From an uncultured Anaerolineaceae bacterium (GTDB lineage Bacteria; Chloroflexota; Anaerolineae; Anaerolineales; E44-bin32), in contig CAZQDE010000004.1 in assembly GCA_964591485.1 (NCBI GenBank), positions 3,150 to 67,149 of the forward strand: a stretch of DNA of 64,000 nt. The letters are read 5' to 3'. Position 1 is the first letter of the stretch, and every line of letters begins with the position of its first letter. Under the pieces are notes generated by a model. It was not told where the DNA came from, ran no database searches, and saw only the letters and a list, made by a program, of their open reading frames with translations. The position numbers and the translations under genes were made by a program. Positions 29,210 to 62,689 of this stretch are shown here, one piece after another.

Positions 29210-29293
29210 GCGACGGGTCTCGCCGGGGGCGAGACCCCTTTCGCGTTGATCCCATACCCGCAGAATTCGGGACAAACAAAGGAGGGTCCACTG

Positions 29294-46455: not shown

Positions 46456-47442
46456 ATGCCGACCAATCTGCCGCCGGAATACTACAAGATCGAGGAGCAG
46501 TTCCGCGAGGCCAAGACGCCACGCGAGAAGATCGATCTTCTCGAGGAGATGCTCAGCGTCATCCCCAAACACAAGGGGACCGATCATCTGCGCGCCGACC
46601 TGCGCCGCAAGCTCTCCAAGCTCAAGGACGCCGCTCAGGCCCGCAGCAAGGTCGGCCGCGCCTCATCGATTTTCTCCATCGACAAGGAGGGTGCCGGCAC
46701 GGCCGTCTTGGTGGGTCCTGCCAACACCGGCAAGTCTTCGCTGGTCGCGGCCCTGACCAACGCCGACCCCGAAGTTGCTCCCTACCCCATGACCACCTGG
46801 AAACCCACCCCGGGCATGATGCCGATCGAGAACATCCAGGTGCAGTTGATCGATACACCCCCGTTGGATCGCGAGTTCGTCGAATCCGAGATGATGGACA
46901 TGATCCGGCGGTCCGATTTGATCCTGCTCATCGTCGATTTACAGGCTTTCCCAGTCGAACAGCTTGAGACCTCCGCGGCCTTTCTCGAAAGTCATCGCAT
47001 CGTGCCAGCCTTCCGCAGCGATTCGTACCCTCAGGACCGCCGATGGAGCCACCGTCCATTCTTGGTGCTAGTCAACAAATGCGATAATGAAAGCCTGCTC
47101 CCGGATTTCGAGGCTTTCTGCGAGCTAAGCGGGGAGGGCTGGCCGTGCCTGCCCATCTCGGCCACAACGGGCTTCGGCGTGGAGGCCTTCAAGCAAGCCA
47201 CATACGAAGCCCTGGGAATCATGCGCATCTATTCCAAGGCGCCCGGCCGCGAGCCCGACTTGAGCGCCCCCTTCGTGCTCAAGAAGGGCAGCACGGTGGA
47301 AGAGTTCGCTGCCAAGGTGCACCAGGATTTCGCCAAGAATCTCAAAGCCGCCCGCGTCTGGGGCAGCGGCGACTTTGAGGGCCAGATGGTCAGCAGGGAT
47401 TATATGCTCCACGAGGGCGACATCGTGGAGCTTCGAATCTGA
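46456..47442 (+). CDS. DRG/Rbg-type OBG-family GTPase with C-terminal TGS domain
   Basis: N-terminal helical segment ...HKGTDHLRADLRRKLSKLK, G1 GPANTGKSS, NKCD, and a C-terminal MRIYSKAPGREPD...TVEEFAAKVHQDFAKNLKAARVWG...GDIVEL block that parallels eukaryotic and archaeal DRG. Confidence 0.8.
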   Translation: MPTNLPPEYYKIEEQFREAKTPREKIDLLEEMLSVIPKHKGTDHLRADLRRKLSKLKDAAQARSKVGRASSIFSIDKEGAGTAVLVGPANTGKSSLVAALTNADPEVAPYPMTTWKPTPGMMPIENIQVQLIDTPPLDREFVESEMMDMIRRSDLILLIVDLQAFPVEQLETSAAFLESHRIVPAFRSDSYPQDRRWSHRPFLVLVNKCDNESLLPDFEAFCELSGEGWPCLPISATTGFGVEAFKQATYEALGIMRIYSKAPGREPDLSAPFVLKKGSTVEEFAAKVHQDFAKNLKAARVWGSGDFEGQMVSRDYMLHEGDIVELRI

Positions 47443-47460
47443 GGCCTTTCTCCCCCGAGG

Positions 47461-47976
47461 CTACGAACGCCGGTCGAAGTAGATGCTCTTGCCCGTCACC
47501 GATAGCGGGATTCCCATGACGAAGTCGGCGTCGATCAACCCCAGCTCACGTGCCACGACCCCCACGCGATACATGATGCGGTTATCCACATTGAGCATGC
47601 CAGCCACTTTAACCGCCGAGCCTAGCGCAATGCCCATATCCAACACACGCAGCGCGCACTGAGGCCCTTTGAATTCGCCCTCGTGCGTGTTAATCTTGAC
47701 GCAGGCTTCCTCGCCACAGGCGCCGCAATTCAGATCCGCGACTTCGGCATCCTTGATGCCGATCAGGACCACGGCGCCTGAGTCAAGCACGTTGCGGCCG
47801 TCACGATCCCAGTTCGTTCGGCCATGCCGCTCGCCATAGGCAATCATCCCTTCACCCAGACGGCGCAAGTCCTCCCCCGCCACGGTGCTCACAACCACGA
47901 AGTCATCCCCCTTGGTCTTTGGCGCGGTAGTGGCGGCAATCTCCATCAACTCAGCAACGGTGTCCAACGCGGTCAT
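47461..47976 (-). CDS. DUF2148 ferredoxin-domain protein
   Basis: AATTAPKTKGDDF...NCGACGEEAC...GIALGSAVK is typical of DUF2148. Confidence 0.7.
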   Translation of the reverse strand: MTALDTVAELMEIAATTAPKTKGDDFVVVSTVAGEDLRRLGEGMIAYGERHGRTNWDRDGRNVLDSGAVVLIGIKDAEVADLNCGACGEEACVKINTHEGEFKGPQCALRVLDMGIALGSAVKVAGMLNVDNRIMYRVGVVARELGLIDADFVMGIPLSVTGKSIYFDRRS

Positions 47977-48130
47977 CTCGTCCTCCCTGAAGCACTTCTG
48001 GCCATTGGTCTGGGGATACTATTATGTCGATGCGGCCGGACCTTGGCAAGCCTGGGCTTGGCTGGCGCCGGGCCCTTGGAGAATCGGCTCGACTATGCCA
48101 GAATCCTGATCCAACCATGAACCTTCCCGA

Positions 48131-48661
48131 ATGGGAGCGAGAGAGACGATGAATCTGCTGCGGGTATTGGTGGGGGCATTCCTGCTGGGCTTTGGCCGTA
48201 GTCTATACTGGCTGTTCGTCGGCGGAGTTGGCTTCCTGGCCGCGAACACGCTCGCAAGCCGCCTGCTGGAGGGATCGCCGCGCATGCTGGTATTGGCGAT
48301 CGCTGTGGCCGCAGGGCTTCTGGGCGCTCTGCTCGCCATCCTCCTGCAGAAATTCGCCGTAGGCCTGGCGGGCTTCCTGGCTGGCGGCTACTTTTTCGTC
48401 ATCCTGCTCGATCTCCTGAGACTGGATTACGGCCCGGCGGCATGGATCCTGTTCGTCGTTGGCGGCTTCCTGGGCACGATCCTGGTTGCTGCTCTTTTCG
48501 AAGTCTCGCTGATCTTTCTATCCTCGCTCAGCGGCGCGCTGCTGATCGCGCAGTCCTTTCAGTCGACGCCCGTCCAGAACGCTTTGCTCATCTCCGGCTG
48601 CCTATTGGCAGGGGTCATCATTCAATCGGTTCTGCTGGTCGGGGAAAAACGCGAGGCCTGA
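48131..48661 (+). CDS. small polytopic membrane protein (DUF4203-like?)
   Basis: About five hydrophobic helices. An alternative ATG lies at 48149. The family assignment is weak. Confidence 0.45.
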   Translation: MGARETMNLLRVLVGAFLLGFGRSLYWLFVGGVGFLAANTLASRLLEGSPRMLVLAIAVAAGLLGALLAILLQKFAVGLAGFLAGGYFFVILLDLLRLDYGPAAWILFVVGGFLGTILVAALFEVSLIFLSSLSGALLIAQSFQSTPVQNALLISGCLLAGVIIQSVLLVGEKREA

Positions 48662-48831
48662 TCGTAGACGAGTGCGCCCCTAAAACGGACGAAGTTTATC
48701 CGGTCTGTGGGTGACATCCTGCACTGGAGCCACCAGAGACCCGCAACCTATGATTAGTGACAAGACGGCGAGCCCATAGCTGAGGCGATTCTCCCCACAA
48801 TTGAGGCTCCTAGCCATGGGAGGGGCGCTCC

Positions 48832-51800
48832 GTGACGGACGGTGCGCAGGCAGACGCCCTCGGATTGGCGAATCCGACCGGCGACCACGCGCCCGTGGGC
48901 GCAGTCATGGTCGTCGGTGGTGGCATTGCCGGCATGCAGGCCAGCCTCGATCTGGCCGACCAGGGCTTTCGCGTCTTCCTGGTTGAGAACAAGTCCGCCA
49001 TCGGCGGCCATATGGCGCAGCTCGATAAGACCTTCCCCACCAACGACTGCGCCATGTGCACCATCAGCCCCAAACTGGTTGAAACCGGGCGGCACCTCAA
49101 CATCGACGTACTGGTGGATCGTGAAGTGCTGCGTGTCGATGGGCAGGCCGGCGATTTCACCGTCACTCTGAGGCGCAAACCGCGCTATATCGACCTGGAG
49201 AAATGCGTCGGCTGCGGGGATTGCGCCGACGTCTGTCCGATCGTCATCCCAGACCCCTTCAACGAGGGGCTATCTCAGCGGCATGCGGCCTTTAAGCTCT
49301 ACCCGCAGGCCGTCCCCAATGCCTACGCCATCGAGAAGCTCGGCATTTCCCCCTGCCGAGACGCCTGCCCTGCCGGCCAGCGCGCCCAGGGTTACATCGC
49401 CCTCATTCGCGAGGGACGATATGAGGACGCGCTGCGTGTTATCAAGGAAGACAATCCCTTCCCCGGCATCTGTGGCCGTATCTGCAACCACCGCTGTGAG
49501 GATGCCTGCAACCGTGGCTTGCTGGATGAGCCCATCAACATCCGCGCCCTCAAGCGATTCGTGACCGACAAAGTCTACGCCAAGCCGCGCGAGCCGCGCC
49601 CGCCGGCAGAGATCACGCAGGAGAAGCGCGTGGCGATCATCGGCGCCGGTCCGTGCGGCCTCACCGCCGCCCAGGACCTGGCCAAGCTGGGCTACCCGGT
49701 GGCCATCTTCGAGGCCCTGCCAGTGGCTGGCGGCATGCTGCGGGTGGGCGTTCCCGAATATCGCCTGCCCGCTGAGATCATCGATCGGGAAGTGGCCGAT
49801 ATCCTCGACCTGGGGATCGAACTCCGTCTGAACACCATGGTCGAGGATTTGGACGAAGTCTTCGATGAAGGCTTCGACGCCGTCTTGATCGCGGTCGGCG
49901 CCCATGAGGGGATTCGTCTGCCAATCCCGGGCGCCGACCTCGACGGCGTGTTGATCAACACCCGCTTCCTGCGCGATGTGCGCCTGGGCAACCCTCCACC
50001 GCTGGGGGAGAAGGTCTTGGTCCTTGGCGGCGGAAACGTGGCTATCGACTGCGCCCGCACCGCAGTCAGGCTGGGTGCGGAGGTCCATCTGGCCTGTCTG
50101 GAATCACGCCAGGGGATGCCCTGCCATCCCTGGGAGGCCGATGCGGCCGAGGAGGAGGGCGTCACCATCCATCCCGACCGCAGCTTCTTGCGCATCGTCG
50201 CCGACGAAAATGGGCGCGCCGCCGGCGTGGAGTGTGCCAAGGTTACCCACTTTGAATTCGACCACGAGGGCCGCCTCTCGGTCGAAACGGAACCCGACTC
50301 CGAGCACATCCTCGAGGCCGACACGGTGATCTTCTCCGTGGGCCAGCGCGCCGGCTTGGCGTTCATCCCGGACGACGCTGGCGTGGGTATCACCCGCCAG
50401 CGAACCATCGCCATCAACCCCAACACCATGGCCGCCACCCGGCCAGGCGTCTTCGCCGCCGGCGATAGCGTTTCGGGGACGGCCTTCGTGATCGAGGCGG
50501 TGGCCTCCGGCCACAAGGCGTCTGAAGCAATCCACCGCTACCTCCAAGGCGAGGATCTCGAATTGCCTCCCAAGCCGGAGTTGCCGGTGGTCAAGTTCAC
50601 CCGCGCCGAACTTCAGCAGCGGGTGCTCGAGGGCGAGCTTAGACCCAAGCCCCGCGTTCCCATGCCAGAGCTTCCGCCGGAGCAACGCCGGGCGAACTTC
50701 GCGGAAGTCGAGCGCGGCTATACCGATGAATTGGCCCAGGAGGAGGCCGCCCGCTGCCTGGCCTGCGCCGTATGCTCTGAGTGCCTCTCCTGCGTGTATG
50801 CCTGCGGCCGGGAGGCCATCGATCACGATATGGTGGCCGTGGAGGAGCAGATCCAGGTGGGAGCCATCGTGCTCGCACCGGGGTATCAGGTCTACCATGC
50901 CGAACTCTCCCAGGAATATGGGCTCGGCCGTTACCCGAATGTGATCACGGCGCTGCAACTGGAGCGCCTGCTTTCGGCCTCCGGGCCCACCGGCGGCCAC
51001 GTCACCCGCCCCTCCGATGGGGAGCCCGCCCGCAAGATTGCCTTCCTGCAATGCGTAGGCTCACGCGACCAGAGCCATGACTACTGCTCGGCTGTCTGCT
51101 GCATGTACGCCGCCAAAGAGGCGGTGATGATCAAGGAGCACGATTCGCAGGCCCAGGTGCATGTCTTCATGATGGACATGCGGGCCTTCAGCAAGGGCTA
51201 TGAAGGTTATTACCGCCGTGCGCGCGAGCAGTACGGCATCGAGTACACTCGCTGCCGCATCTCCTCCCTGCGCGAGGATCCCGAGACTGGGGACCTGGTC
51301 GTCCGCTACCGGCGCGAATCGTCCTCCGGCATCGAGATGTTGGAGGAAACCTTCGACCTGGTGGTTCTTTCGGTGGGTATGGAGATCTCCGACTCGGTCA
51401 AGCAACTCGGCCGCGACCTGGGAATCGAGCTGGACGAATATGGCTTCTGCCATACCGCCTTCTTTGACCCGCTGCAGACCACTCGGCCGGGCATCTACGC
51501 AGCCGGGCCCTTCCGGGAGCCAAAGGACATCCCCGAGACCGTGATCGATGCCAGCGGCGCGGCGGCGCAGGCGGCCGAGTTGCTGGCGGCCTCGCGGTTC
51601 ACGCTCACCCGCAAAGCCGAATTCCCGCCTGAGCGCGACATTCGCGGCGAGCCGCCACGCATCGGCGTCTTCGTCTGCCATTGCGGCTCGAATATCGGTG
51701 GCTATCTGGACGTGCCTGAGGTGGCCGAATACGCCCTCAGCCTGCCGGGTGTGGTCCATGCGGAGGACAATCTCTACACCTGCTCCCAAGACAGCATCGC

Positions 51801-53397
51801 CCATATTACCGAGCAGGTAAAAGAGCTGGGGCTCAACCGGGTCGTCGTGGCCTCTTGCACGCCCATCACGCACGCCCCGCTCTTCCAGGACTCGATTCGC
51901 GCTGCAGGGTTGAATCCGGCCATGTTCGAGATGGCCAACATCCGCAATCAGTGTTCATGGGTGCACTCCAACGACTGGGAGGCCGCCACCCGCAAAGCCA
52001 AGGACCTGGTGCGTATGGCCGTCGCCCGGGCCAGCACGCTGGAGCCGATCCACACAACCTCTGTGCCCGTCGAGGCCCAGGCGCTGGTGGTGGGCGGGGG
52101 CGCAGCTGGAATGACGGCGGCCCTATCCCTGGCACAGAGCGGCTTCGAAGTTCACCTAGTCGAGAAAGAAGCCGAGCTCGGCGGCAACTTGCGCAGGGTC
52201 CGCTACCTTCTTGATGGACAGGATCCCCGCGCTTTTCTGGACGAGACGATTGAACGTGTGCAGGCCGAGTCACGCATTCACCTGCACTTGGGCAGCGAGG
52301 TGCAACAGACCAGCGGCTTCATGGGCCGTTTCACCTCGATCCTGAGGACTCCCCAGGGCGAGGAGCCGATCCGCCACGGTGTGACGATCCTGGCCACCGG
52401 CGCCCAAGAATATCGCGGCGGCGAGTATGGCTATGGGACACACCCGCGAGTGCTCACCGGCCTGGAGTTCGAGAGCATGCTGGCGCATGCTGAGCAGCCG
52501 GATGTGCCGCTGGAGGACCAGGCCAGGGCCGCCTGGGAGGCGATCGGCGGACAATTGCCATCTGAAGTGGCCATGATCCTTTGCGTAGGCCCAGCGGACA
52601 GGTTCTGCAGCCGGATATGCTGCACAACCGCTCTGAAGAACGCCCTCGAACTCAAGCGCCAGCGCCCCGATGCCCGGGTCTTTGTGCTCTTCAAGGATAT
52701 CCGCACCTATGGCTTCAAAGAGCGCCTCTACACCGAGGCCCGCCGGCAGGGTGTCGTCTTCCTGCGCTACGATGACGAAACTCAGCCGGTGGCAGAGTTC
52801 CTGAACGGCCGGCTCAAGCTGGTGGCGCACGACCCGCAACTCGGCCAGGACATCACAATTTCGCCCGACCTACTGGTGCTCAGCAACCCGATCGTGCCCT
52901 CGCCAGATAGCCGGGACCTCGCCAGCACGTTCAAGGTTCCGGTGGACGCCGATGGCTTCTTCCTCGAAGCCCATGTGAAGCTGCGGCCGGTCGACTTCGC
53001 CTCCGACGGCCTCTTCATGGCCGGGATGGCCCACTACCCTAAGATGCTGGATGAGACCCTGGTCCAGGCTCGCGCCGCCGCCGCCCGCGCCGCACGGGTC
53101 CTCTCCCAGCGGGCCCTCACCGCGGGAGGCATCGTCGCCCGGGTGATCGCGGAGAAATGCGTCGGCTGCCTGACCTGCGTACGCGTATGCCCCTTCGATG
53201 TGCCCCAGGTCCAGCCCGATTTTGCTGGTGTGGGCGGGATTCAAGGTGCGGCCTTTATCGAGCCCACGATCTGCCAGGGCTGCGGAAGCTGCGCCGCAGA
53301 ATGTCCAGCCAAGGCCATCGAATTGATTCACTACCGCGACGACCAGATCATGATCAAGCTGGATGCCCTACTCCTAGGAGCGAAGAGTCCGTTATGA
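48832..53397 (+). CDS. hdrA: HdrL-like giant flavo-FeS protein: HdrA-like module with inserted GltD/NfnB-like NAD(P)H oxidoreductase + second full HdrA module
   Basis: 1521 aa. N-terminal FAD motif VMVVGGGIAGMQAS. GltD-like insert at ~49345-50600 (CRDACPAGQRAQGYIALI...NPFPGICGRICNHRCEDAC...IIGAGPCGLTAA...VFAAGD). HdrA signatures LQCVGSRD/CSAVCC, then a second FAD motif LVVGGGAAGMTAA and a C-terminal dicluster ferredoxin. GTG start with GGGAGGGG upstream. Confidence 0.85.
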   Translation: MTDGAQADALGLANPTGDHAPVGAVMVVGGGIAGMQASLDLADQGFRVFLVENKSAIGGHMAQLDKTFPTNDCAMCTISPKLVETGRHLNIDVLVDREVLRVDGQAGDFTVTLRRKPRYIDLEKCVGCGDCADVCPIVIPDPFNEGLSQRHAAFKLYPQAVPNAYAIEKLGISPCRDACPAGQRAQGYIALIREGRYEDALRVIKEDNPFPGICGRICNHRCEDACNRGLLDEPINIRALKRFVTDKVYAKPREPRPPAEITQEKRVAIIGAGPCGLTAAQDLAKLGYPVAIFEALPVAGGMLRVGVPEYRLPAEIIDREVADILDLGIELRLNTMVEDLDEVFDEGFDAVLIAVGAHEGIRLPIPGADLDGVLINTRFLRDVRLGNPPPLGEKVLVLGGGNVAIDCARTAVRLGAEVHLACLESRQGMPCHPWEADAAEEEGVTIHPDRSFLRIVADENGRAAGVECAKVTHFEFDHEGRLSVETEPDSEHILEADTVIFSVGQRAGLAFIPDDAGVGITRQRTIAINPNTMAATRPGVFAAGDSVSGTAFVIEAVASGHKASEAIHRYLQGEDLELPPKPELPVVKFTRAELQQRVLEGELRPKPRVPMPELPPEQRRANFAEVERGYTDELAQEEAARCLACAVCSECLSCVYACGREAIDHDMVAVEEQIQVGAIVLAPGYQVYHAELSQEYGLGRYPNVITALQLERLLSASGPTGGHVTRPSDGEPARKIAFLQCVGSRDQSHDYCSAVCCMYAAKEAVMIKEHDSQAQVHVFMMDMRAFSKGYEGYYRRAREQYGIEYTRCRISSLREDPETGDLVVRYRRESSSGIEMLEETFDLVVLSVGMEISDSVKQLGRDLGIELDEYGFCHTAFFDPLQTTRPGIYAAGPFREPKDIPETVIDASGAAAQAAELLAASRFTLTRKAEFPPERDIRGEPPRIGVFVCHCGSNIGGYLDVPEVAEYALSLPGVVHAEDNLYTCSQDSIAHITEQVKELGLNRVVVASCTPITHAPLFQDSIRAAGLNPAMFEMANIRNQCSWVHSNDWEAATRKAKDLVRMAVARASTLEPIHTTSVPVEAQALVVGGGAAGMTAALSLAQSGFEVHLVEKEAELGGNLRRVRYLLDGQDPRAFLDETIERVQAESRIHLHLGSEVQQTSGFMGRFTSILRTPQGEEPIRHGVTILATGAQEYRGGEYGYGTHPRVLTGLEFESMLAHAEQPDVPLEDQARAAWEAIGGQLPSEVAMILCVGPADRFCSRICCTTALKNALELKRQRPDARVFVLFKDIRTYGFKERLYTEARRQGVVFLRYDDETQPVAEFLNGRLKLVAHDPQLGQDITISPDLLVLSNPIVPSPDSRDLASTFKVPVDADGFFLEAHVKLRPVDFASDGLFMAGMAHYPKMLDETLVQARAAAARAARVLSQRALTAGGIVARVIAEKCVGCLTCVRVCPFDVPQVQPDFAGVGGIQGAAFIEPTICQGCGSCAAECPAKAIELIHYRDDQIMIKLDALLLGAKSPL

Positions 53398-53873
53398 TTG
53401 ATTTCGAGCCCCAAATCGTCGCCTTCTGCTGCACGCATTGCGCCTACAACGCGGCCGATCTCGCCGGGAGCCTGCGCTTTCAGTATCCCCCGGCGATCAA
53501 GATCATCCAGGTGCTTTGCAGCGGCCGGGTGGATGTGATCCACCTGCTGCGGGCCTTCGAAGACGGTGCCGACGGCGTGCTCGTCGCCGGTTGACTGCCC
53601 GGCGACTGTCATTACCTGGAAGGTAATGTCAACGCCAGACGCAGGGTAGACTACACGCGGCAATTGCTTGAGGAAATCGGGCTCGAAGGGCAGCGCTTGC
53701 AGATGATCAACGTGTCGTCCGCCATGGCCGGAGAGTTCGCATTCGCCGCGGCTGAATTAACGGCCGCGATCCAGCAATTGGGGCCCAGCCCGCTGCGGGA
53801 AAATGGGCCGGCGCCGCAACCCGCTGGGGACCGGGAACCGTCCCCGCATGTGGAGCATGATGGCACAGATTGA
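53394..53873 (+). CDS. mvhD: MvhD-like protein with in-frame TGA (putative selenocysteine, codon 67)
   Basis: ORFs 53157-53594 and 53664-53873 share one frame, and the reading frame stays open after the TGA at 53592-53594. GADGVLVAG-TGA-LPGDCHY aligns with GADGVMVAGCLEGDCHF and GADGVMIVACSLGNCHH in the two paralogues. The ATG overlaps the stop of the upstream gene (ATGA). Confidence 0.7.
53601..53636 (+). promoter_or_regulatory. candidate bacterial SECIS hairpin
   Basis: Begins 7 nt after the TGA. Lower stem GGCG/CGCC, upper perfect 7-bp stem CATTACC/GGTAATG, apical loop UGGAA. The first loop G lies 24 nt after the TGA. Confidence 0.5.
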
Positions 53874-55089
53874 GGATCTTACCCGCTTTGATCTATTCAC
53901 CGATCTCCCCGAATCGGCCGTGGAGCGTATTGCGGCGTTGGCCCATCCCGAGGAGTATCCACGCGACGCGTGGATCTTCAACGAGGGGGAAGCCGCCGAG
54001 AAGCTTTACCTGATCTTGCGGGGCAAAGTCTCGCTCGAGAAACGCGTCCAATTAGGCAGGACCGGCACACCTCGCCAGGCCGTTATCAGCATCGTTGGGC
54101 CCTGGCACGCCATTGGCTGGTCAAGCCTAGTGCCCCCGTACGCGTACACCTCATCCGGTCTCTGTCTCGAAGACACGGCTGTCCTTGCCATACAGGGCGA
54201 GGAGCTGCGGGCCTTGATGAGCGCCGAGCCTGAGATCGGCTTCAAGATCTTCCACCGGGTGGCTTCGATCGTACGCGCCCGCATGGTGAGCGCCACCTCC
54301 ACGCTGACCTACTTCCTCTCGATCGTCTCGCACGAACTCAAGCGGCCGCTTGCCGCTGTCGAAAATTATCTGCAAGTCCTGCTGGGAGGCTACGCCGGAA
54401 ATCTGACCCCCAAGCAGCAGCGGCTGCTCGAACGCAGCGTGCTCCGCCTCACTGACTTGCGCCATCTAATCAGCGATCTGCTCGATTTCGCTCGCATCCA
54501 GCCGGATCAGATCCGCGCCGATTTCGAGTGGGTGAACCCGGCGGAGGTGGGCGCCGAGGCGCTTGAAGAGGTGCGGCTGGCGGCCAGCCAGAAGAACATG
54601 CGCCTGAAGGCTATCGGCGCCACAGAATTCCAGCCCCTCGTCGCCGCCCGCCGGCGCCTTCGCCAAGTGATCTCCAACTTGCTGGCCAATGCCATCAAGT
54701 TCTCACCGGAGGGGAGCACGGTCACGCTTGCCGCACACGAGAGGCCGGATTCACTCGTGATCGAGGTGATGGACGAGGGAATTGGGATCCCAGCCGAGGA
54801 TCAACCTCATATCTTCGAAGATTTTTTCCGCGCCAGCAACGCGGCCGAATTCGGGGGGGCCGGACTGGGACTTTCGATCGCCAAGAAGATCATCGATGCC
54901 CATGAAGGACGCATCGAGGTCGAAAGCCCGTACCTGCCGGATAAGAGCGGCACCAAGTTCACCGTCATCATCCCCCGCACGCTCAGTCTGCCCCGCGATC
55001 GCGCCAATCAAGGGTCCGATCTAGAAGCGGCGGCGCCCATCCGCCAGCAGGGGGAGGCTGGCGCTCAGGGCGCACCAGGGGATGCATGA
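53860..55089 (+). CDS. cyclic-nucleotide-binding-domain sensor histidine kinase
   Basis: CAP_ED-like N-terminus (FDLFTDLPESAV...IFNEGEAAEKLYLILRGKV), H-box SIVSHELKRPL, and HATPase_c (NLLANAIKF...DEGIGIP...GGAGLGLSIAKKI). The start is ambiguous (53848, 53857 or 53860) and overlaps the mvhD end. Confidence 0.8.
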   Translation: MAQIEDLTRFDLFTDLPESAVERIAALAHPEEYPRDAWIFNEGEAAEKLYLILRGKVSLEKRVQLGRTGTPRQAVISIVGPWHAIGWSSLVPPYAYTSSGLCLEDTAVLAIQGEELRALMSAEPEIGFKIFHRVASIVRARMVSATSTLTYFLSIVSHELKRPLAAVENYLQVLLGGYAGNLTPKQQRLLERSVLRLTDLRHLISDLLDFARIQPDQIRADFEWVNPAEVGAEALEEVRLAASQKNMRLKAIGATEFQPLVAARRRLRQVISNLLANAIKFSPEGSTVTLAAHERPDSLVIEVMDEGIGIPAEDQPHIFEDFFRASNAAEFGGAGLGLSIAKKIIDAHEGRIEVESPYLPDKSGTKFTVIIPRTLSLPRDRANQGSDLEAAAPIRQQGEAGAQGAPGDA

Positions 55090-55090
55090 G

Positions 55091-55864
55091 ATGAGCGAGA
55101 AGCCTTATATCCTGATCGCCGACGACGATCCCGATATCCTGGAAGGGATCACTGCGGTTCTCGAAAGCAAGCCCTACCGGCTGGCCACGGCCAAGGATGG
55201 ACTGGAATGCATGCAGCGCATCCGCGAGGAAACGCCGGACCTGCTGATCCTGGACATGATGATGCCACGCATGGATGGCTTCGCCGTAATCCTGGAACTG
55301 CGTTCTGACCCGCAGTACGCCGGACTGCCGGTCATCATCCTTACCACCGTCGTGGAGGATGCCGCCTACCGCCGTTACGAACTTGAGACCGGCGCCGCCA
55401 TGGAGGCACAGGCCTACATCGAGAAGCCGGCCTCTCCAGAAGAGCTGCTCCGCCATGTGAGCGCCATCGTCGAACAGCCTTATATCATTGTGGCGGATGA
55501 TGATCCGGACGTTCTCGAGGCTGTGCGCACCATCCTCGAGAGCCAGCCGTACCAGGTGGCAACCGCCAGGGATGGCGAGAAATGCCTCGAGATGGTCCGC
55601 AAGCGCAAGCCCGATCTGCTGCTGCTCGACCTGCTCATGCCACGCATGGATGGCTTCGCCGTCATCCGGGAGCTGCGCAGCGAACCAGCCTACGCCGACC
55701 TTCCCATCCTGGTGCTCACCACAGTGGTCGAGGATGCCAGCCGGCGACGCTACGAACTCGAGACGGGGCGGGATATGGCCGTCCACGCCTATTTACAGAA
55801 ACCGGTCGCGCCCGATCAGTTGCTCACCCGCGTGGCCGAGGCGCTCAAGAAGGTGACGGCATGA
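55091..55864 (+). CDS. stand-alone tandem receiver (REC-REC) response regulator
   Basis: Two clearly paralogous REC domains (ILIADDDPD...DLLILDMMMPRMDGFAV and IIVADDDPD...DLLLLDLLMPRMDGFAV). There is no output domain, and the stop overlaps the next ATG (ATGA). Confidence 0.85.
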   Translation: MSEKPYILIADDDPDILEGITAVLESKPYRLATAKDGLECMQRIREETPDLLILDMMMPRMDGFAVILELRSDPQYAGLPVIILTTVVEDAAYRRYELETGAAMEAQAYIEKPASPEELLRHVSAIVEQPYIIVADDDPDVLEAVRTILESQPYQVATARDGEKCLEMVRKRKPDLLLLDLLMPRMDGFAVIRELRSEPAYADLPILVLTTVVEDASRRRYELETGRDMAVHAYLQKPVAPDQLLTRVAEALKKVTA

Positions 55865-58800
55865 GCGAGTCCCGGAATCCCCGCCAGCCGACCGGAGCCG
55901 TGCTGGTGGTTGGCGGCGGCATCGCCGGCATGCAGGCCAGCCTTGATCTGGCCGAGCAGGGATTCCGCGTCCACCTTGTCGAGAGCAAATCTGCCATTGG
56001 CGGACACATGGCCCAGCTCGATAAGACCTTCCCGACCAACGATTGTGCCATGTGCATCATGAGCCCCAAGTTGGTCGAGACCGGCCGGCACTTGAATATC
56101 GACCTTTATGTCGACAGCGAAGTGGTCAGCCTCGAGGGCGAGGTCGGCCGGTTCGTGGCCAAGCTGCACCGCAAGCCCCGCTATGTGGATCTCGAGCGCT
56201 GTGTGGGTTGCGGCGATTGTGAGGCGGTTTGCCCGGTCAGCCTGCCTGACATCTACAACGAGCAACTCACCGCCCGCAAGGCAATCTACAAGCTCTACCC
56301 CCAGGCCGTTCCCAACGCCTACGCCATCGAAAAGCTCGGTGTTGCCCCTTGCCGTCACGCATGCCCGGCCGATCAGCGCGCCCAAGGGTACATCGCCCTG
56401 ATCGCGCAGGGGCGCTACCGGGAGGCTTTCCGCGTCATCAAGGAAGACAACCCCTTCCCGAGCGTCTGCGGCCGCACGTGCCACCACCCCTGCGAGGGGC
56501 ACTGCACCCGGGCGCTCATCGATGAAGCGGTGAGCATCATGGCCCTAAAGCGCTTCGTGGTCGACTATGCACTGGCCTATGGTCGCGAGCGGGTCGAGCC
56601 CGCGGCGCGCACCCGCCCCGAGTGGGTAGCCGTTGTCGGCGCCGGCCCGGCCGGCCTCACTGCCGCGCACGACCTCGCCAAACTGGGTTATGGCGTCACC
56701 GTCTATGAAGCCCTGCCCGTCGCCGGCGGGATGATGCGGGTGGGCATCCCCGCCCACCGGCTGCCCAAGGGCGTTCTCCAGCAAGACATCGATGACATCC
56801 TGGCTTTGGGCATCAACCTGAAGACCAACTCGCCGGTCGACGACCCCGCCGCCCTGCTCAAGGAGGGATATGATGCCGTCTGCCTGGCGACGGGAATCTC
56901 GACCCGCGACCGCTCGCTGGGCGTGGATGGCGAGCAAGCGGAGGGGGTGATGTCGGCGGCCACCTTCCTGCGCAAGGTCAATCTTGGCGAGCCTGTGACC
57001 GTGGGGGAGCGCGTGGCGGTCGTGGGTGGTGGGATTACCGCGCTGGACGCCGCCGCCGTGGCCCGCCGTCTCGGCGCCCGCGAAGTCCATCTGGCGCTCG
57101 ACCGCCCGCGCGGCGAGTTGCCCGCCTACCACTGGGAGATGGCCGCCGTCGAAGCCGAGGGCATCCACCTGTTCGAGCACACCACTCTCACCCGCATCCT
57201 CACCCAGGAGGGCCGTGTGGCCGGTGTGGAATTGGCCAGGACCGGCAAGGGCATGACCGTAGATGAAAAGGGGCGCCGCAGGCCCCGCGTGCTTCCAGAG
57301 ACGATCTTCACCCTGGCGGTCGACACGGTCATCGGCACCATCGGCCAGCAATCGGATCTGAGCTTCCTCGATCCCCGCTTCGATGAACTCGAGGCCGATC
57401 AAGACACCCTGGCGAGCGAGATTCCGGGCCTATTTGTCGTGGGCGGACGAAAGACCGGCGCCAGCTATATCGTGGAGGCCATCGCCCTAGGACACCGTGT
57501 GGCGCGCTCGATCCACGCTTACCTGCAAGGTGAAAGCCCCGGCGCAATCGAAGAGCCTCGGCCGAGCCCGGTGAAGCTGGACCGTGAGCAGGCGACGCGC
57601 CTGTACGCGCTCGATCCAGCCAGGGCCTTGCCGCGGCAGGAACCCGCTCTGCTGCCCATTGAGGAGCGAGTGACCAGTTTCCGCGAAGTGGTTCTCGGCC
57701 TGACCGAGCGGCAGGCCCGCGCCGAAGCCCAGCGTTGCCTCCAATGTGGCCTTTGCGCGGAATGTCTGGAGTGTGTGTATGCCTGCGGCACCGATGCCAT
57801 CGATCACAACATGCAGCCGCAGGAAATCGAGCTCGAAGTCGGCGCGGTCATCCTCGCCCCGGGGTATGAGGCCTACCGGGCAGAGCTCTCGCAGGAGTAC
57901 GGCTTTGGCCGCTACCCCAACGTCATCACCTCGCTGCAACTGGAGCGGCTGCTCTCGGCCTCCGGCCCCACCGAAGGCCACGTCCTGCGGCCCTCGGATG
58001 GACGCCCCGCCCGCAAGGTGGCATTCCTGCAGTGCGTGGGCTCGCGCGACCAGGAGCATGACTACTGCTCCGCTGTCTGCTGCATGTACGCCGCCAAAGA
58101 GGCCATCCTCATCCGTGAACATGACCCTCAAGCAGAGGTGCGCATCTTTATGATGGACGTGCGCGCCTTCAGCAAGGGCTACGAAGAGTATTACCGGCGA
58201 GCCCAAGAGCAATACGGCATCCAGTTCACCCGCTGCCGCGTCTCCGAGATCAAAGAAGATCCGCAGACCCACGAGCTCATCCTGCGCCATGCCGGGCCGG
58301 CCCTTGAGGGTCCCGGTGCCCGTTCCGCCGCAGAGCGCATGTCCGAAGAACGCTTCGACCTCGTGGTGCTGGCCGTGGGCATGGAGATCTCCCCGAAAGT
58401 CCAGGAGCTCGGCCGGCGGCTCGGCGTGGAACTCGACCGCTATGGCTTCTGCGCCACCACCACCTTCCAGCCGATCGAGACTTCCCGCCCAGGCATCTAC
58501 GCCGTGGGACCCTTCCGCGAGCCCAAGGACATCCCCGAGTCCGTGATCGACGCCTCCGCCGCCGCGGCGATGGCCGGGGGCCACCTGGCGGCCGCACGGG
58601 GACTGCTGACCCGGGAACCGAGTTACCCGCCAGAAAAGGATGTTACCGGTGAATCCCCCCGGGCGGGCATCTTCGTCTGCCACTGCGGATCGAACATCGC
58701 CGGCTACCTGGACGTGCAGGCGCTTACCGCCTACGCCGCCAGCTTACCGAACGTGGTTCACGCCGAGGACTTGCTATACGCATGTTCTCAGGATAGCACC

Positions 58801-60426
58801 GCCAAGATCCGCGAGCGCATCCGCGAGCACAACCTGAACCGGGTGATCGTGGCCTCCTGCACCCCTCTCACGCACGGCCCTCTTTTCCAGGATGTTATTC
58901 GGGCCGAGGGCCTGAACGAGCACCTCTTCGCCATGGCCAACATCCGCAATCATTGCTCTTGGGTCCATTCAAGCGATCGGGCGATGGCCACCGAGAAGGC
59001 CAAGGACCTGATCCGCATGGCGCTGGGGCGGGCCTTGGCCCTCGAACCGTTGCACCGCCAACCAACCCCTATCCGGCAATCGGCGCTTGTTCTTGGCGGA
59101 GGCGTGGCAGGTATGAGCGCCGCGCTGGCCATCGCCGAGGGTGGTTTTGAGGTCGATCTTGTTGAGCGGGAAGCCGTTCTGGGCGGCCAGCTTAGGCAAA
59201 TCCACCTCGGACTGCCGGGCGTCTCCGAGGGCGAGAGCGCCGACCCGGCGGACCTTCTGGAGGACATGATCTCCCGGGTTGAGAAGCATGCAAGCATCCA
59301 GGTTCACCTCGAGAGCGAATTGGTTGAATCGCGCGGCTTCGCCGGCAATTTCACCTCCCTAATCGAGCATAGGAATGGGGAGCGGCGGGAGATCGATCAT
59401 GGTGCCACAATCGTGGCTATCGGCGGCGCAGAATTCCGCGGCGACACCTATGGATATGGAACTCACGATCGCATCCTGACTCAACGGGACTTCGAGGCCC
59501 TTCTCGCCGCCGAGATGAACCCCATCCCCCGAGATCAGGGCCCCTCTCTAGAATTGAAGGATGTGCGTCAGGTTGTGATGATCCAATGTGTGGGGCCGGC
59601 GGAGACGGTATGCGCCCGAACCTGCTGCACGGTGACGCTGAAGAACGCCTTGCACTTCAAGCGCCGTCACCCCCAGGCGCAGGTGGCCATCATTCACAAG
59701 GACCTGCGTGTCTATGGGTTCAAGGAACGCCTCTACCGCCAGGCGCTCGATGCGGGCATTCTCTTCATCCGCCGCTCCAATGGCGAGCGACCCATGGTGG
59801 CGTTCGACCATCCCGAGGGCATCCTCAGCGTTCAGATCCTGGATGCTATCCTCCGAGAGACCATCACACTCCAGCCGGACTTGGTAGTGCTCTCCATGCC
59901 TATGGTGCCCGCCAAGGGAAGCCGGGAGCTGGCAAGCCGCTTGAAGGTTCCCGTCGATATGGAGGGCTGGTTCCTGGAGGCACATGTCAAACTGCGGCCG
60001 GTGGACTTCGCCAGCGAGGGCATCTTCCTCGCCGGCGCAGCCCATTATCCCAAGCTACTTGATGAATCCATCGTCCAGGCGCAGGCTGCCGCCTCACGGG
60101 CCATGCGGTTGCTGGCCAGAGAGAGCGTCCCAACGGGAGGCGCCATCGCCCGCGTTGACCCCTCTGCTTGTGTGGCCTGCCTGACCTGCGTGCGCATCTG
60201 TCCCTATGGTGTCCCGCGCATCGATGAGAGTGCAGTGGGGGCCGGCGGCATCCAGGGAGCTGCCTACATCGAACCAAGCGTATGCCAGGGTTGTGGAACG
60301 TGCGTGGGGGAATGCCCGGCGTATGCGATTGAACTGCTCCACTACCGCCATAGCCAGGTGGAGAAGGAGGTCATCGCCCTGCTCCGTCCCGAGGAGATCT
60401 GGACAAGCAGCGAGGTGGGATCATGA
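55861..60426 (+). CDS. hdrA: HdrL-like giant flavo-FeS protein, paralogue of 48832-53397 (same architecture, same length)
   Basis: 1521 aa from the ATG at 55861 (MSESRNPRQPTGAVLVVGGGIAGMQAS). Collinear with the paralogue, including the GltD-like insert. The 93 extra N-terminal codons in the track ORF lie over the REC gene in another frame. Confidence 0.85.
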   Translation: MSESRNPRQPTGAVLVVGGGIAGMQASLDLAEQGFRVHLVESKSAIGGHMAQLDKTFPTNDCAMCIMSPKLVETGRHLNIDLYVDSEVVSLEGEVGRFVAKLHRKPRYVDLERCVGCGDCEAVCPVSLPDIYNEQLTARKAIYKLYPQAVPNAYAIEKLGVAPCRHACPADQRAQGYIALIAQGRYREAFRVIKEDNPFPSVCGRTCHHPCEGHCTRALIDEAVSIMALKRFVVDYALAYGRERVEPAARTRPEWVAVVGAGPAGLTAAHDLAKLGYGVTVYEALPVAGGMMRVGIPAHRLPKGVLQQDIDDILALGINLKTNSPVDDPAALLKEGYDAVCLATGISTRDRSLGVDGEQAEGVMSAATFLRKVNLGEPVTVGERVAVVGGGITALDAAAVARRLGAREVHLALDRPRGELPAYHWEMAAVEAEGIHLFEHTTLTRILTQEGRVAGVELARTGKGMTVDEKGRRRPRVLPETIFTLAVDTVIGTIGQQSDLSFLDPRFDELEADQDTLASEIPGLFVVGGRKTGASYIVEAIALGHRVARSIHAYLQGESPGAIEEPRPSPVKLDREQATRLYALDPARALPRQEPALLPIEERVTSFREVVLGLTERQARAEAQRCLQCGLCAECLECVYACGTDAIDHNMQPQEIELEVGAVILAPGYEAYRAELSQEYGFGRYPNVITSLQLERLLSASGPTEGHVLRPSDGRPARKVAFLQCVGSRDQEHDYCSAVCCMYAAKEAILIREHDPQAEVRIFMMDVRAFSKGYEEYYRRAQEQYGIQFTRCRVSEIKEDPQTHELILRHAGPALEGPGARSAAERMSEERFDLVVLAVGMEISPKVQELGRRLGVELDRYGFCATTTFQPIETSRPGIYAVGPFREPKDIPESVIDASAAAAMAGGHLAAARGLLTREPSYPPEKDVTGESPRAGIFVCHCGSNIAGYLDVQALTAYAASLPNVVHAEDLLYACSQDSTAKIRERIREHNLNRVIVASCTPLTHGPLFQDVIRAEGLNEHLFAMANIRNHCSWVHSSDRAMATEKAKDLIRMALGRALALEPLHRQPTPIRQSALVLGGGVAGMSAALAIAEGGFEVDLVEREAVLGGQLRQIHLGLPGVSEGESADPADLLEDMISRVEKHASIQVHLESELVESRGFAGNFTSLIEHRNGERREIDHGATIVAIGGAEFRGDTYGYGTHDRILTQRDFEALLAAEMNPIPRDQGPSLELKDVRQVVMIQCVGPAETVCARTCCTVTLKNALHFKRRHPQAQVAIIHKDLRVYGFKERLYRQALDAGILFIRRSNGERPMVAFDHPEGILSVQILDAILRETITLQPDLVVLSMPMVPAKGSRELASRLKVPVDMEGWFLEAHVKLRPVDFASEGIFLAGAAHYPKLLDESIVQAQAAASRAMRLLARESVPTGGAIARVDPSACVACLTCVRICPYGVPRIDESAVGAGGIQGAAYIEPSVCQGCGTCVGECPAYAIELLHYRHSQVEKEVIALLRPEEIWTSSEVGS

Positions 60427-60887
60427 GCGTGCAAGCCAGTCCACCGCTGCATATTGTTGCCTTCTGTTGCCATTATTGCGCCTATGCCGCTGCGGATCTG
60501 GCGGGCGTGCTGCGGCTCCAGTATCCAGCCACGGCGCGCATCGTGGAGATTCCATGTGCCGGAAGGTTGGATGCGCTGGAAGTGCTGCACACCTTCGAGC
60601 ACGGAGCGGATGGCGTGATGGTCGCGGGTTGCCTGGAGGGGGACTGCCACTTCCAATCCGGCAACCTGAATGCCAAACGACGGGTGGATTTCATTCGCGG
60701 GCTGCTGGAGCAGATTGGACTCGAGCCCGAGCGGCTGGAGATGTTCAACCTCTCCTCCGCCATGGCAAGGCGATTTGCGGAGATCGTTGAGCAGATGGCC
60801 TCCCAGATTCAAGCGCTGGGCCCAAGCCCGCTCCGCAAACAAGCCCGCTCACAACCTGAAACCATAATGGAGAGTCACACCCCATGA
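60423..60887 (+). CDS. mvhD: MvhD-like protein, Cys form
   Basis: IVAFCCHYCAY...IPCAGR...GADGVMVAGCLEGDCHF. The start overlaps the upstream stop (ATGA). Confidence 0.85.
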   Translation: MSVQASPPLHIVAFCCHYCAYAAADLAGVLRLQYPATARIVEIPCAGRLDALEVLHTFEHGADGVMVAGCLEGDCHFQSGNLNAKRRVDFIRGLLEQIGLEPERLEMFNLSSAMARRFAEIVEQMASQIQALGPSPLRKQARSQPETIMESHTP

Positions 60888-60960
60888 GAACCTACAAACC
60901 ACAATGGCAAGCGGCTGCGCCCTCAGACGCTAGGGCCCTAGGCTGCAAGGAGGGAAGGTT

Positions 60961-61647
60961 ATGATCATCGCCGAGCAGAAGCCCTTGGAAGAAATCCGAG
61001 GACTGATAGGTGAAGCAGAGAAGGTGCTGGTAGTGGGCTGCGGCACCTGTGTCACGGTTTGCTTCGCAGGCGGCGAGAAGGAAGCCGGTATCCTGGCAAC
61101 CAGCCTGCGCATGGCCTCCAAGCTCGAGGGCCAGCCTAAGGAAGTGACCCACACGACCGTTCAGCGCCAATGCGAATGGGAGTACATCGACCCGCTGCGC
61201 GATCAGATTGCGCAAGCGGATGCCGTGCTTTCAATCGGCTGCGGGATCGGGGTCCAGGCCTTGGCCGAGCGTTTCCCGGAGGCTATCGTGCTGCCCGGTT
61301 TGAATACCACCTTCTTGGGCCTGCCGGTCGAGCAAGGGATTTGGGAGGAGCGCTGCGCGGCCTGTGGTTCCTGCATCCTAGGCCTCACAGGCGGGATCTG
61401 CCCCATCGCCCGCTGCGCCAAGCAGCTGCTCAATGGCCCTTGCGGGGGCTCCCAGAACGGAGTCTGCGAGATCAACCCTGATACGCCCTGCGCTTGGCAG
61501 CTTATCTATGACCGGCTGAAAGCCCAGGGCCGCCTGCATCTGCTGATGGAGATCCAACCCGCCAAGGATTGGTCCACCAGCCGGGATGGGGGACCCCGCA
61601 AGATTACACGCGAAGACCTGCGTCTGCAGGCCGAACAATCCGAGTAG
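60961..61647 (+). CDS. metV: MetV (MTHFR-associated Cys-rich / FeS subunit)
   Basis: VVGCGTCVTVCFAGG...SIGCGIGVQ...CAACGSCILGLTGGICPIARCAKQLLNGPCGG is typical of MetV. AAGGAGGG lies upstream. Confidence 0.85.
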   Translation: MIIAEQKPLEEIRGLIGEAEKVLVVGCGTCVTVCFAGGEKEAGILATSLRMASKLEGQPKEVTHTTVQRQCEWEYIDPLRDQIAQADAVLSIGCGIGVQALAERFPEAIVLPGLNTTFLGLPVEQGIWEERCAACGSCILGLTGGICPIARCAKQLLNGPCGGSQNGVCEINPDTPCAWQLIYDRLKAQGRLHLLMEIQPAKDWSTSRDGGPRKITREDLRLQAEQSE

Positions 61648-61665
61648 GCGCGAAGGAGCCAAGCC

Positions 61666-62682
61666 ATGAGCGAAGACCGAACCAATGGATACAAATCCGG
61701 ATCGCGCCTGGAGCGGGTGCTCAAGGCCGGCCACTTCGCCGTAACGGCCGAGTTGGGACCCCCGCAAAGCGCCGACGGCGAGGTCATCCGCAAGAAGGCC
61801 GCCCAGCTCAAGGGCTACTGCGATGCCGTGAACATCACCGACAATCAGACCGCCATCGTGCGCATGTCCAGCATCGGCGCCGGCACGATCGTGGTCCAGG
61901 AAGGCCTGGAGCCCATCATCCAGATGACCTGCCGCGACCGCAACCGGCTGGCGATCCAATCCGACTTGATGGGTGCCTATGCGCTCGGCATGCGCAACGT
62001 GCTTTGCCTGACAGGCGATCACCAATCCTTCGGCAACCACCCCACCGCCAAGAACGTGCACGACCTGGACTCGCTGCAGCTGGTTCAGATGGTGGTCAAG
62101 CTGCGGGATGAGCACCAGTTCCAATGTGGGGATGAGGTGAAGGGCATCGAGCCCAGGTTCTTCGTGGGCGCGGCGGCCAACCCCTTCGGGGACCCCTTCG
62201 AGTGGCGTCCCTACCGTCTGGCGAAGAAGGTTCAGGCCGGCGCCAACTTCATCCAGACCCAGCTGATCTACAATGTGCCTCGCTTCGAGGAGTACATGGC
62301 CAAGGTGCGCGAGCTAGGATTGCATGAGAAGGTGTACATCCTGGCGGGCATCGGTCCCTTGAAATCCCCCGGCATGGCCCGCTACATGCGCGACCAAGTG
62401 CCCGGCCTGGATGTGCCCACCGAATTCGTCGATCGCATGACCGCTGCCGCCGCGGGCATCGACAAGGAAGACAAGAAGGCCCGCTCCCAGGCCTGGCGGC
62501 AGGAGGGCATCCGCGTCGCCATCGAGCTGATAGAGCAGATGAAGCAAATCGAGGGTGTTGCAGGCGTGCACATCATGGCCATCGAGTGGGAGAAGGCAGT
62601 TAAACCCATCGTGGAGGGCGCCGGCCTCTACCCGCGCCCGGAGCCTGAAGCGCTGCCAAGCGCCTCGGCAAGCGAAGAGTGA
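61666..62682 (+). CDS. metF: methylenetetrahydrofolate reductase
   Basis: FAVTAELGPP...AVNITDNQTAIVRMSS...CRDRN match MTHFR TIM-barrel motifs. Confidence 0.9.
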   Translation: MSEDRTNGYKSGSRLERVLKAGHFAVTAELGPPQSADGEVIRKKAAQLKGYCDAVNITDNQTAIVRMSSIGAGTIVVQEGLEPIIQMTCRDRNRLAIQSDLMGAYALGMRNVLCLTGDHQSFGNHPTAKNVHDLDSLQLVQMVVKLRDEHQFQCGDEVKGIEPRFFVGAAANPFGDPFEWRPYRLAKKVQAGANFIQTQLIYNVPRFEEYMAKVRELGLHEKVYILAGIGPLKSPGMARYMRDQVPGLDVPTEFVDRMTAAAAGIDKEDKKARSQAWRQEGIRVAIELIEQMKQIEGVAGVHIMAIEWEKAVKPIVEGAGLYPRPEPEALPSASASEE

Positions 62683-62689
62683 GGCCTTT

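Follow-up and report, generated by a model that had tools for sequence, protein, structure and literature searches.

Why would a bacterium place two copies of a large electron-transfer module in front of a single methylenetetrahydrofolate reductase, and why should a sensor kinase and a receiver protein be wedged between those copies? Both questions are raised by positions 48832-62682 of the stretch of DNA analyzed here (64,000 nucleotides of contig CAZQDE010000004.1, assembly GCA_964591485.1; hereafter “the window”), which comes from an uncultured Anaerolineae bacterium (Chloroflexota). Eight genes, all on the + strand, were delineated there from open reading frames (ORFs), their translations and Pfam matches, in the order hdrL-A, mvhD-A (of the selenocysteine, Sec, type), kinase, REC-REC (REC being the receiver domain), hdrL-B, mvhD-B (of the cysteine, Cys, type), metV and metF. 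The locus is a Wood-Ljungdahl operon of this bacterium, ending in its methylene-tetrahydrofolate (methylene-THF) reductase, and the answer that we favor, at a probability of roughly 0.55, is that a single MetVF is shared by two HdrL-MvhD bifurcating modules which are not equivalent, and that a dedicated two-component pair tunes these modules by non-transcriptional means.

Layout of the locus

The genes of the locus, together with the one RNA signal recognized within them, are given below (coordinates are those of the window; aa, amino acids; SECIS, selenocysteine insertion sequence).

48832-53397, +, hdrL-A: HdrA-like flavoprotein of 1521 aa, counted from the first GTG, into which an NfnB/GltD-like NAD(P)H/FAD domain is inserted at about residues 170-640, and which has a second HdrA-like half; “ACLESR” type
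53394-53873, +, mvhD-A: selenocysteine-type MvhD with an FlpD domain; in-frame TGA at 53592-53594
53601-53636, +, SECIS-like hairpin: core CAUUACC-UGGAA-GGUAAUG at 53610-53628, the core starting 18 nt past the first base of the UGA
53857-55089, +, histidine kinase: cytoplasmic, with a CAP/cNMP-like sensor domain, HisKA and HATPase_c; ORF 53803-55089, alternative starts 53803, 53848 and 53860
55091-55864, +, REC-REC protein: receiver-only, two REC domains (Pfam, signature motif and subfamily profile); alternative start 55082
55861-60426, +, hdrL-B: 1521 aa; B-clade paralogue of hdrL-A in which the NAD(P)H/FAD domain is altered
60423-60887, +, mvhD-B: Cys-type MvhD, TGC at 60630-60632, no SECIS hairpin
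60961-61647, +, metV: small subunit associated with methylenetetrahydrofolate reductase (PF12225), its downstream position kept in relatives
61666-62682, +, metF: methylenetetrahydrofolate reductase (PF02219)

Stop/start overlaps of the ATGA kind at 53394, 55861 and 60423, as well as the kinase/receiver junction at 55082-55091, were all read directly from the sequence, while homology places the likely start of the kinase at ATG 53857 or 53860, overlapping the mvhD-A stop, and relatives of HdrL-A align with it from residue 1. A first-pass annotation, made from the letters of this DNA alone, had described six co-directional genes with overlapping or abutting junctions; the ORFs and junction reads bear out every one of these genes where it was placed, but the string is really one of eight genes, ending in metVF. 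Its view that the modules feed MetVF agrees with their position directly upstream of metVF, in a stretch that also bears a cluster for carbon monoxide dehydrogenase/acetyl-CoA synthase (CODH/ACS). The equal length of 1521 aa that it had pointed out for the two HdrL proteins, on the other hand, is a product of start-codon choice and carries no meaning. Scans of 47400-63400 for sigma-70 and terminator patterns gave counts no higher than those of shuffled sequences and none between the + strand genes, such patterns being uninformative for Chloroflexota. The locus is one contiguous string without intergenic gaps for separate promoters, within which internal promoters may nonetheless exist.

Two HdrL paralogues and their NAD(P)H insert

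HdrL-A and HdrL-B are 56% identical over 1513 aa (E = 0) and MvhD-A and MvhD-B are 59% identical, values far above chance that confirm the paralogy of the two modules already proposed in the first pass. An mvhD gene lies directly 3' of each hdrL copy, both downstream proteins match FlpD, and both HdrL copies are Cys-type. In each HdrL, matches to HdrA/HdrA2 models flank a GltD/NfnB-like stretch at about residues 160-660 (Pfam, NCBIfam and relatives in the PDB), and this insert aligns full-length with NfnB-like chains, including the Fer4_20 cluster domain and both Rossmann folds. Its nearest solved structures are the NfnB-type chains 9bov, 9n5u, 8oh5, 4ylf and 5jca, followed by small subunits of glutamate synthase; 9n5u is named NfnA, and the farther matches include chains of glutamate synthase [NADPH] and dihydropyrimidine dehydrogenase [NADP(+)].

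It is within this insert that the two paralogues part ways. Alignment columns were called diagnostic if conserved in the non-B sequences and conserved differently in the B clade (to which the second copy of the window belongs, see below), and 32 such positions were found, all of them at residues 212-630 (HdrL-A numbering), i.e., in the NfnB/GltD-like insert, with none in the HdrA-like parts. The motifs and the length compare as follows.

NAD(P)H Rossmann motif: GGGNVAIDCARTA in copy A, GGGITALDAAAVA in the B clade
End of the second strand: HLACLESR in copy A, LALDRPRGE in the B clade
Flavin motif: VFAAGD in copy A, LFVVGG in the B clade
Length: copy A as the reference, a 7-residue deletion in the B clade

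By the usual rule for Rossmann folds, NADH is favored where the second strand ends in an acidic residue, and NADPH where arginines occupy that place. The solved chains 9bov and 9n5u show GGGNTAMD-ART and then YRR at the aligned positions (in the two alignments displayed), and, set against the NADPH-binding NfnB, StnA and GltD-type domains (4ylf, 5jca, 8oh5, 9bov, 9n5u), the “YRR” is replaced by “CLE” in copy A and by “LDR” in copy B. Nor is this confined to the window: across 87 HdrL sequences, the first copies of tandem loci carry the acidic “CLE” form, L137 (we use L numbers for individual loci) being the sole exception, and the second copies carry either the canonical “YRR” or the derived “LDR”, the latter in the crown of the B clade, window included. 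Copy B of the window has, besides its “LDR”, lost the Asn and Arg of GGGNxAxDxAR and the Asp of AAGD, while the cofactor motifs outside the insert are retained in both copies and have been maintained across deep divergence. Copy A, with “CLE” in place of “YRR”, therefore looks NADH-linked, and copy B would seem to descend from NADPH-type “YRR” forms, its site having been remodelled to “LDR” and being, in the window, perhaps re-specified or perhaps partly degenerate. A remodelled site in module B next to an NADH-like one in module A would make the two modules non-equivalent.

Recurrence of the layout

How widespread is such an arrangement? The eight proteins of the window were mapped onto 80 HdrL-anchored genome loci, and in a scan with one genome per species the nearest loci proved to be those of Anaerolineales and Anaerolineae metagenome-assembled genomes (MAGs), at 76-82% identity. 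The tandem order hdrL-mvhD-(two-component genes)-hdrL-mvhD-metVF is present in the window and in nine further species-level Anaerolineae genomes, and it comes in two sub-forms, one with the kinase followed by REC-REC (window, L017, L026, L028, L030, L020/L043) and one with a single REC followed by the kinase (L027, L032, L037, L012). A single hdrL-mvhD-metVF without two-component genes in between is found at 18 loci. In L023, L058, L154 and L155 the kinase and two REC genes are interleaved with two metV/metF pairs. Extended inserts between two hdrL genes were also seen (L137, L143, L145 at 7994-11528, L148, L149, L165, L166), comprising a REC gene, an additional, more distantly related kinase, the orthologous kinase and another REC gene.

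The same question can be asked starting from the kinase. An alignment of nine kinase orthologues was used against metagenome contigs, yielding 80 loci with kinases 50-73% identical, which sort by context as follows.

mvhD upstream and hdrL downstream: 49 loci
mvhD upstream, then the contig end: 17 loci
hdrL downstream only: 4 loci
Interleaved with metV/metF: 2 loci
Both sides too short: 8 loci
Anything else: 0 loci

All 72 of the loci with readable flanks thus lie in hdrL/met clusters, and since no other context was encountered among them, the kinase/receiver pair can be regarded as a dedicated component of the cluster. Whether the pair travels with the duplication, a check that the first-pass annotation had suggested, is answered in the affirmative by these 72 loci together with the nine further genomes. 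Its impression that regulators embedded in such an operon were unknown elsewhere has to be given up, as the layout is common in Anaerolineae and two-component genes are reported to flank metF in marine Chloroflexi, where a passage of Sewell et al. (2017, PMC5736913) describes a system called phoBR flanking metF_1 in a single-cell genome, the interleaved arrangement that L023, L058, L154 and L155 display. Apart from that phoBR remark, literature searches on HdrL, and on MvhD or MetF in connection with kinases or regulators, brought up no account of the layout.

Two candidate complications were set aside. L007 (8250-9992), a close relative by copy A (77% identity), runs from mvhD-A straight to metV-metF over a junction of ~170 nt that matches neither flank in its nearest relatives; since this may reflect either a real loss of the kinase, REC, hdrL-B and mvhD-B genes or a join made in assembly at the repeated mvhD, L007 was not taken to show that copy B and the regulators can be done without. 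A second module hidden in the 5.9-kb gap of L011 or the 2-kb gap of L015 was rejected too, as unrelated genes are located there.

The kinase and receiver pair

The sensor domain of the kinase is recognized by cNMP_binding (PF00027, E = 4.7e-10, residues 35-125), no membrane segment is among the domains recognized in the protein, and the motifs SHELK (H-box), NLLANAIKF, DEGIGI and GLGLSI are invariant in the alignment of the nine orthologues. The canonical phosphate-binding cassette of cyclic-nucleotide sensors consists of Gly-Glu and then Arg-Ser/Thr-Ala; judged by eye from a sequence alignment, the corresponding stretch of the kinase reads G-W/F-S-S/T-L and then Y/H-T/S-x-S/T, and it seems to have neither the Glu nor the Arg. 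In both REC domains the DDD, the acceptor Asp, the Thr and the Lys are in place, so that the kinase and both receivers retain all of their catalytic residues. Pfam and NCBIfam searches of the REC-REC protein found no DNA-binding output domain, the only Pfam matches being two Response_reg domains and the PhoB/OmpR-type models matching the receiver part alone. Receiver-only regulators generally work via protein contact or as steps of a phosphorelay.

Each of the two REC domains also bears an unusual conserved stretch, LTTVVEDA(A/S)xRRYELETG, and a similar signature is seen in a stand-alone REC gene of 125 aa located beside or near metF in the hdrL-mvhD-metVF loci of Desulfobacterota. A hidden Markov model of the subfamily, built from 87 Chloroflexi receiver domains, scored 11 metF-linked RECs of Desulfobacterota at 90-110 bits, against no more than 57 bits for all other REC ORFs there, a gap which argues that one receiver subfamily accompanies the HdrL-MvhD-MetVF module in two phyla.

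How might such a pair and two such modules work together? Each HdrL-MvhD module would couple the oxidation of a pyridine nucleotide to the reduction of methylene-THF by the shared MetVF, with ferredoxin probably being reduced as well, by flavin-based bifurcation, and with the reverse reaction also being possible, a coupling suggested by analogy with the complexes of Moorella and Sporomusa (PMC5736913, PMC9430772). Module A would be NADH-linked, and module B, coming from NADPH-type ancestors, would operate with its remodelled site. The soluble kinase would sense some intracellular ligand via its CAP-like domain, which seems to be devoid of the cyclic-nucleotide contact residues, and would phosphorylate the REC-REC protein, which might be expected to act directly on protein because it lacks a DNA-binding output, and which would most likely contact the Hdr/Met complex, thereby setting the choice of module or of direction. 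The Cys in mvhD-B would lower the selenium demand of module B, the regulators not having been recruited for the sake of the Sec/Cys difference. A narrower version, in which the phosphorylated REC binds the HdrL-MvhD-MetVF assembly itself and picks the HdrL module (NADH-type or NADPH-derived) or the direction, this control being of sufficient age to be shared, in its single-REC form, with the Desulfobacterota clusters, is put forward tentatively, and we would sooner doubt than back it.

Of the competing explanations, the one that survives best, unlikely as we hold it to be, makes the REC-REC protein a phosphorelay intermediate or phosphate sink leading to an unlinked DNA-binding regulator of the whole operon, which would answer redox, energy or C1 status. 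The catalytic residues kept by the kinase and both receivers would serve such a relay well, and the second kinase and further REC genes of the extended loci are suggestive of multi-step signalling; neither an Hpt protein nor a DNA-binding regulator was found, however, in the ~90 loci of the tandem or kinase kind, and the occurrence of the same receiver subfamily alone beside metF in Desulfobacterota is a better fit to a direct partner of the enzyme.

Selenocysteine, cysteine and the age of the duplication

The idea originally attached to this locus was a different one: that Sec and Cys isoenzyme modules are switched in their expression by the kinase/receiver pair according to selenium supply, as are Vhu/Vhc and Fru/Frc in Methanococcus. 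Its premise, that the TGA in mvhD-A encodes Sec, stands up well. The Pfam FlpD match runs right across the UGA (profile positions 1-123 of 123, MvhD-A residues 8-130), mvhD-B and 35 Cys-type homologues have a Cys at the position aligned with the UGA (53592-53594), and the segment 53585-53660 folds at -29.7 kcal/mol (z = -2.5). Comparison of 39 distinct TGA-type with 35 distinct Cys-type mvhD sites, taken from the Chloroflexota and Desulfobacterota loci under comparison, showed the core hairpin AUUACC-loop-GGUAAU at 38 of the 39 TGA-type sites and at none (0/35) of the Cys-type ones, with synonymous hairpin codons fixed accordingly: CAT in 39/39 versus 17/35, GGT in 38/39 versus 5/35 and AAT in 39/39 versus 12/35. 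As the conserved hairpin and the fixed synonymous codons are confined to TGA-type genes, the UGA is best read as a genuine Sec codon with a functional SECIS of its own. A scan of the whole window at Rfam gathering thresholds returned no matches (0), no curated SECIS or riboswitch model being applicable.

The receiver protein recurs in identical form on short contigs from the JGI metagenomes 3300021469 and 3300021489 and from several SRA runs, where the order of the genes is the same as well. Public gene calls on window-identical contigs (L001-L006; JGI 3300021469/3300021489; SRR7051266 and others) let mvhD-A stop at the UGA, giving a product of 66 aa and leaving ~200 nt uncalled. The MvhD selenoprotein is, in other words, systematically mis-annotated in those public data.

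What became of the Sec/Cys contrast over time? The hdrL-A of the window falls in the A clade (100% bootstrap), and the second copies of the window, L028, L030, L027, L032, L043 and L024 form the B clade (100% bootstrap, neighbour-joining), which includes lineages far from that of the window; on this phylogeny the duplication that gave rise to the two HdrL-MvhD modules is an old one. A single clade of the “YRR”-type second copies (L016, L017, L026, L033, L037) was considered too and dropped, its bootstrap value being only 17, and one duplication for all tandems is not claimed. In the 87-sequence tree the deeper members of the B clade are Sec, and Cys predominates in the crown, apart from one Sec subclade that is well supported. 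Before the regulators, mvhD has TGA in 64/64 readable metagenome loci and in every genome locus. Of the 20 metagenome loci in which the second mvhD is readable, 12 have Cys there and 8 have TGA, and the single-copy mvhD genes of Anaerolineae mostly have TGA. Among the genomes, the window, L028 and L030 are Sec/Cys, and L017, L027, L037 and L020/L043 are Sec/Sec. Loci that are Sec/Sec and yet share the layout and the regulators indicate that the duplication and the regulators predate the change from Sec to Cys, the Cys in mvhD-B being, as far as the tree can tell, a late substitution confined to part of one lineage.

A selenium-responsive switch is, in consequence, not supported, and we regard it as improbable. 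In its favor, Sec in the first mvhD is matched by Cys at the corresponding residue of the second in the window, L028, L030 and 12 metagenome loci, and Sec/Cys replacement among Hdr/Mvh paralogues was speculated upon in the D. autotrophicum genome paper (PMC2702500). At least 4 genomes and 8 metagenome loci, however, have this layout and these regulators in a Sec/Sec state; the deeper B lineages are Sec, which makes the regulators older than the Cys change; the response regulator has no DNA-binding domain; the contiguous genes leave no intergenic gaps to hold separate promoters; the 32 clade-diagnostic HdrL positions lie, all of them, in the NAD(P)H domain; and module A would still need selenium.

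Less probable again is that the UGA itself serves as the selenium sensor, an undecoded UGA ending translation ~280 nt early and uncoupling the kinase and receiver (the kinase start overlapping the mvhD-A stop), so that the efficiency of Sec decoding would set the level of the regulators. The overlapping or very short mvhD-A/kinase junction and the invariable TGA of the mvhD before the regulators would both accord with it, but the mvhD of most single-copy Anaerolineae loci has TGA as well, and the association may merely reflect ancestry. That the duplication is functionally redundant and the kinase/receiver pair a passenger controlling unrelated targets is scarcely credible, as the passage from mvhD-A straight to metVF in L007, the point in its favor, may be an assembly join across the repeated mvhD, as all readable kinase-anchored loci lie in hdrL/met clusters, and as both copies keep their cofactor motifs outside the insert across deep divergence.

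Several points weigh against the favored reading of two non-equivalent modules under a private, non-transcriptional control. The distinction between NADH and NADPH is drawn from the Rossmann rule, which is a rule of thumb, and from the way the sequences align to NADPH enzymes of solved structure, and the ambiguous “LDR”, along with the lost FAD/NAD(P)H residues, may mean that the insert of copy B is inactive and not re-specified. A phosphorelay with an unlinked transcription factor at its end is another route by which a receiver-only regulator can act. The “YRR”-type second copies L017, L026, L037 and L160 form no supported clade (bootstrap 17), so that the course of the duplication can be traced only in part and gene conversion may have occurred. 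MAGs and metagenome contigs are the source of every comparison sequence, some of the metagenome loci being near-duplicates of one population, so that the counts overstate the number of independent cases. Finally, tRNA search and Pfam scans found none of selA, selB, selD and tRNA-Sec within the 64-kb window.

Comparison with known systems

HdrL-MvhD pairs are known from Desulfobacterium autotrophicum and other Desulfobacterota (Strittmatter et al. 2009, PMC2702500; S. fumaroxidans proteome, PMC5947623), and the locus resembles them in its large HdrA-like protein with a GltD/NfnB-like NAD(P)H insert, in the mvhD that always comes next and in the metV-metF that often follows, but differs from them in having two tandem copies with a two-component pair between. 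The position of Sec differs as well: in Anaerolineae it resides in MvhD, HdrL being Cys, whereas in Desulfobacterota it usually resides in HdrL (FPTNDCAM-U, 35/45 sites), the metVF-linked MvhD being Cys. The selenium site of the module has evidently shifted between subunits across phyla. Sec-containing HdrL of Desulfobacterota was seen in loci L046-L086 (e.g., L051 at 10220 and L060 at 10175).

With the MetFV-HdrABC-MvhD complexes of Moorella thermoacetica and Sporomusa ovata, as presented in passages of PMC5736913 and in PMC9430772, the locus shares metV and metF adjoining an HdrA-type gene and mvhD in a Wood-Ljungdahl organism, and the presumed role is also shared, namely the coupling of methylene-THF reduction to a second redox reaction. 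Unlike those complexes, it has no hdrB or hdrC (a CCG domain was found in 0/8 genes of 48832-62682), HdrL with its own NAD(P)H domain replaces HdrA, the module is duplicated and signalling genes are embedded. Identical to the locus in phylum, pathway and gene families are the hdr-mvhD-metVF clusters of marine Chloroflexi (the DscP3, An-B22 and SM23 bins that figure in parts of PMC5736913); the passages of that paper on MvhD and selenocysteine contain neither a tandem hdrL duplication with a pair between the copies nor the Sec state of mvhD, and, as opposed to the “phoBR” that it mentions, the receivers described here are receiver-only and not transcription factors of the PhoB type.

The likeness to Vhu/Vhc and Fru/Frc of Methanococcus consists in paralogous subunits of which one has Sec where the other has Cys, the MvhD/VhuD family included. 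The Methanococcus genes form separate transcription units under a selenium-responsive DNA-binding regulator; here, by contrast, the genes form a contiguous string, no DNA-binding regulator is present at the locus, and the Sec/Cys contrast is absent from many loci of the same layout. These Methanococcus pairs are also mentioned in PMC2702500.

Other features of the window

Two further elements of the window belong to the same metabolic setting.

18568-29209, +, CODH/ACS cluster: complete, with CODH, ACS, two corrinoid iron-sulfur protein (CFeSP) subunits, the RACo activator, a CooC-like ATPase and a pterin-binding methyltransferase
31161-35015, +, third Hdr module: double HdrA of 1066 aa that lacks the NfnB-like insert (31161-34361), together with a Cys-type mvhD (34518-35015, ACSLGNCHH)

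The CODH/ACS cluster shows this to be an organism with the Wood-Ljungdahl pathway; after the cluster comes a malic enzyme gene at 29246-30655. The third Hdr pair lies directly upstream of hdrL in relatives (L008, L012, L017, L028 and others), while here ~13.8 kb of unrelated genes separate the two, and a small ferredoxin-like ORF is found within the module at 34207-34584. The single tRNA-Leu call, a tRNA-Leu(caa) at 34828-34913 on the - strand (ARAGORN), is probably a false positive, as it is located wholly inside the third mvhD ORF, itself well supported, on the opposite strand.

Beyond this module, an unusually large ORF of 1253 aa at 35074-38835 (-) joins ABC-permease domains to an M28 peptidase domain, and a MocR-like GntR-aminotransferase regulator at 38796-40553 (+) overlaps its start on the other strand. 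A DUF2148 ferredoxin-domain gene at 47461-47976 (-) lies just upstream of the hdrL-A operon. Unrelated to the Hdr locus are a cluster of a MoxR-type AAA ATPase, DUF58 and two DUF4129 genes at 5080-10386 (-) and a separate GAF-HisKA_3 kinase at 11961-13325 (+).

Significance

Anaerolineae are among the most abundant bacteria of anoxic sediments. Clusters of HdrL, MvhD and MetVF were already known, and what sets the present locus apart from them is the tandem duplication with a kinase/receiver pair between the copies. Two HdrL modules whose sole systematic difference is in the pyridine-nucleotide domain, a private kinase, a receiver-only regulator and a metF-linked receiver subfamily suggest dual NADH/NADPH coupling and post-translational control of a bifurcating complex. 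A bacterial SECIS element and the replacement of Sec by Cys can, moreover, be followed cleanly by comparison here within one gene family. For anaerobic bioenergetics, the questions of what feeds MetVF, and how that supply is controlled, are hereby turned into specific experiments.

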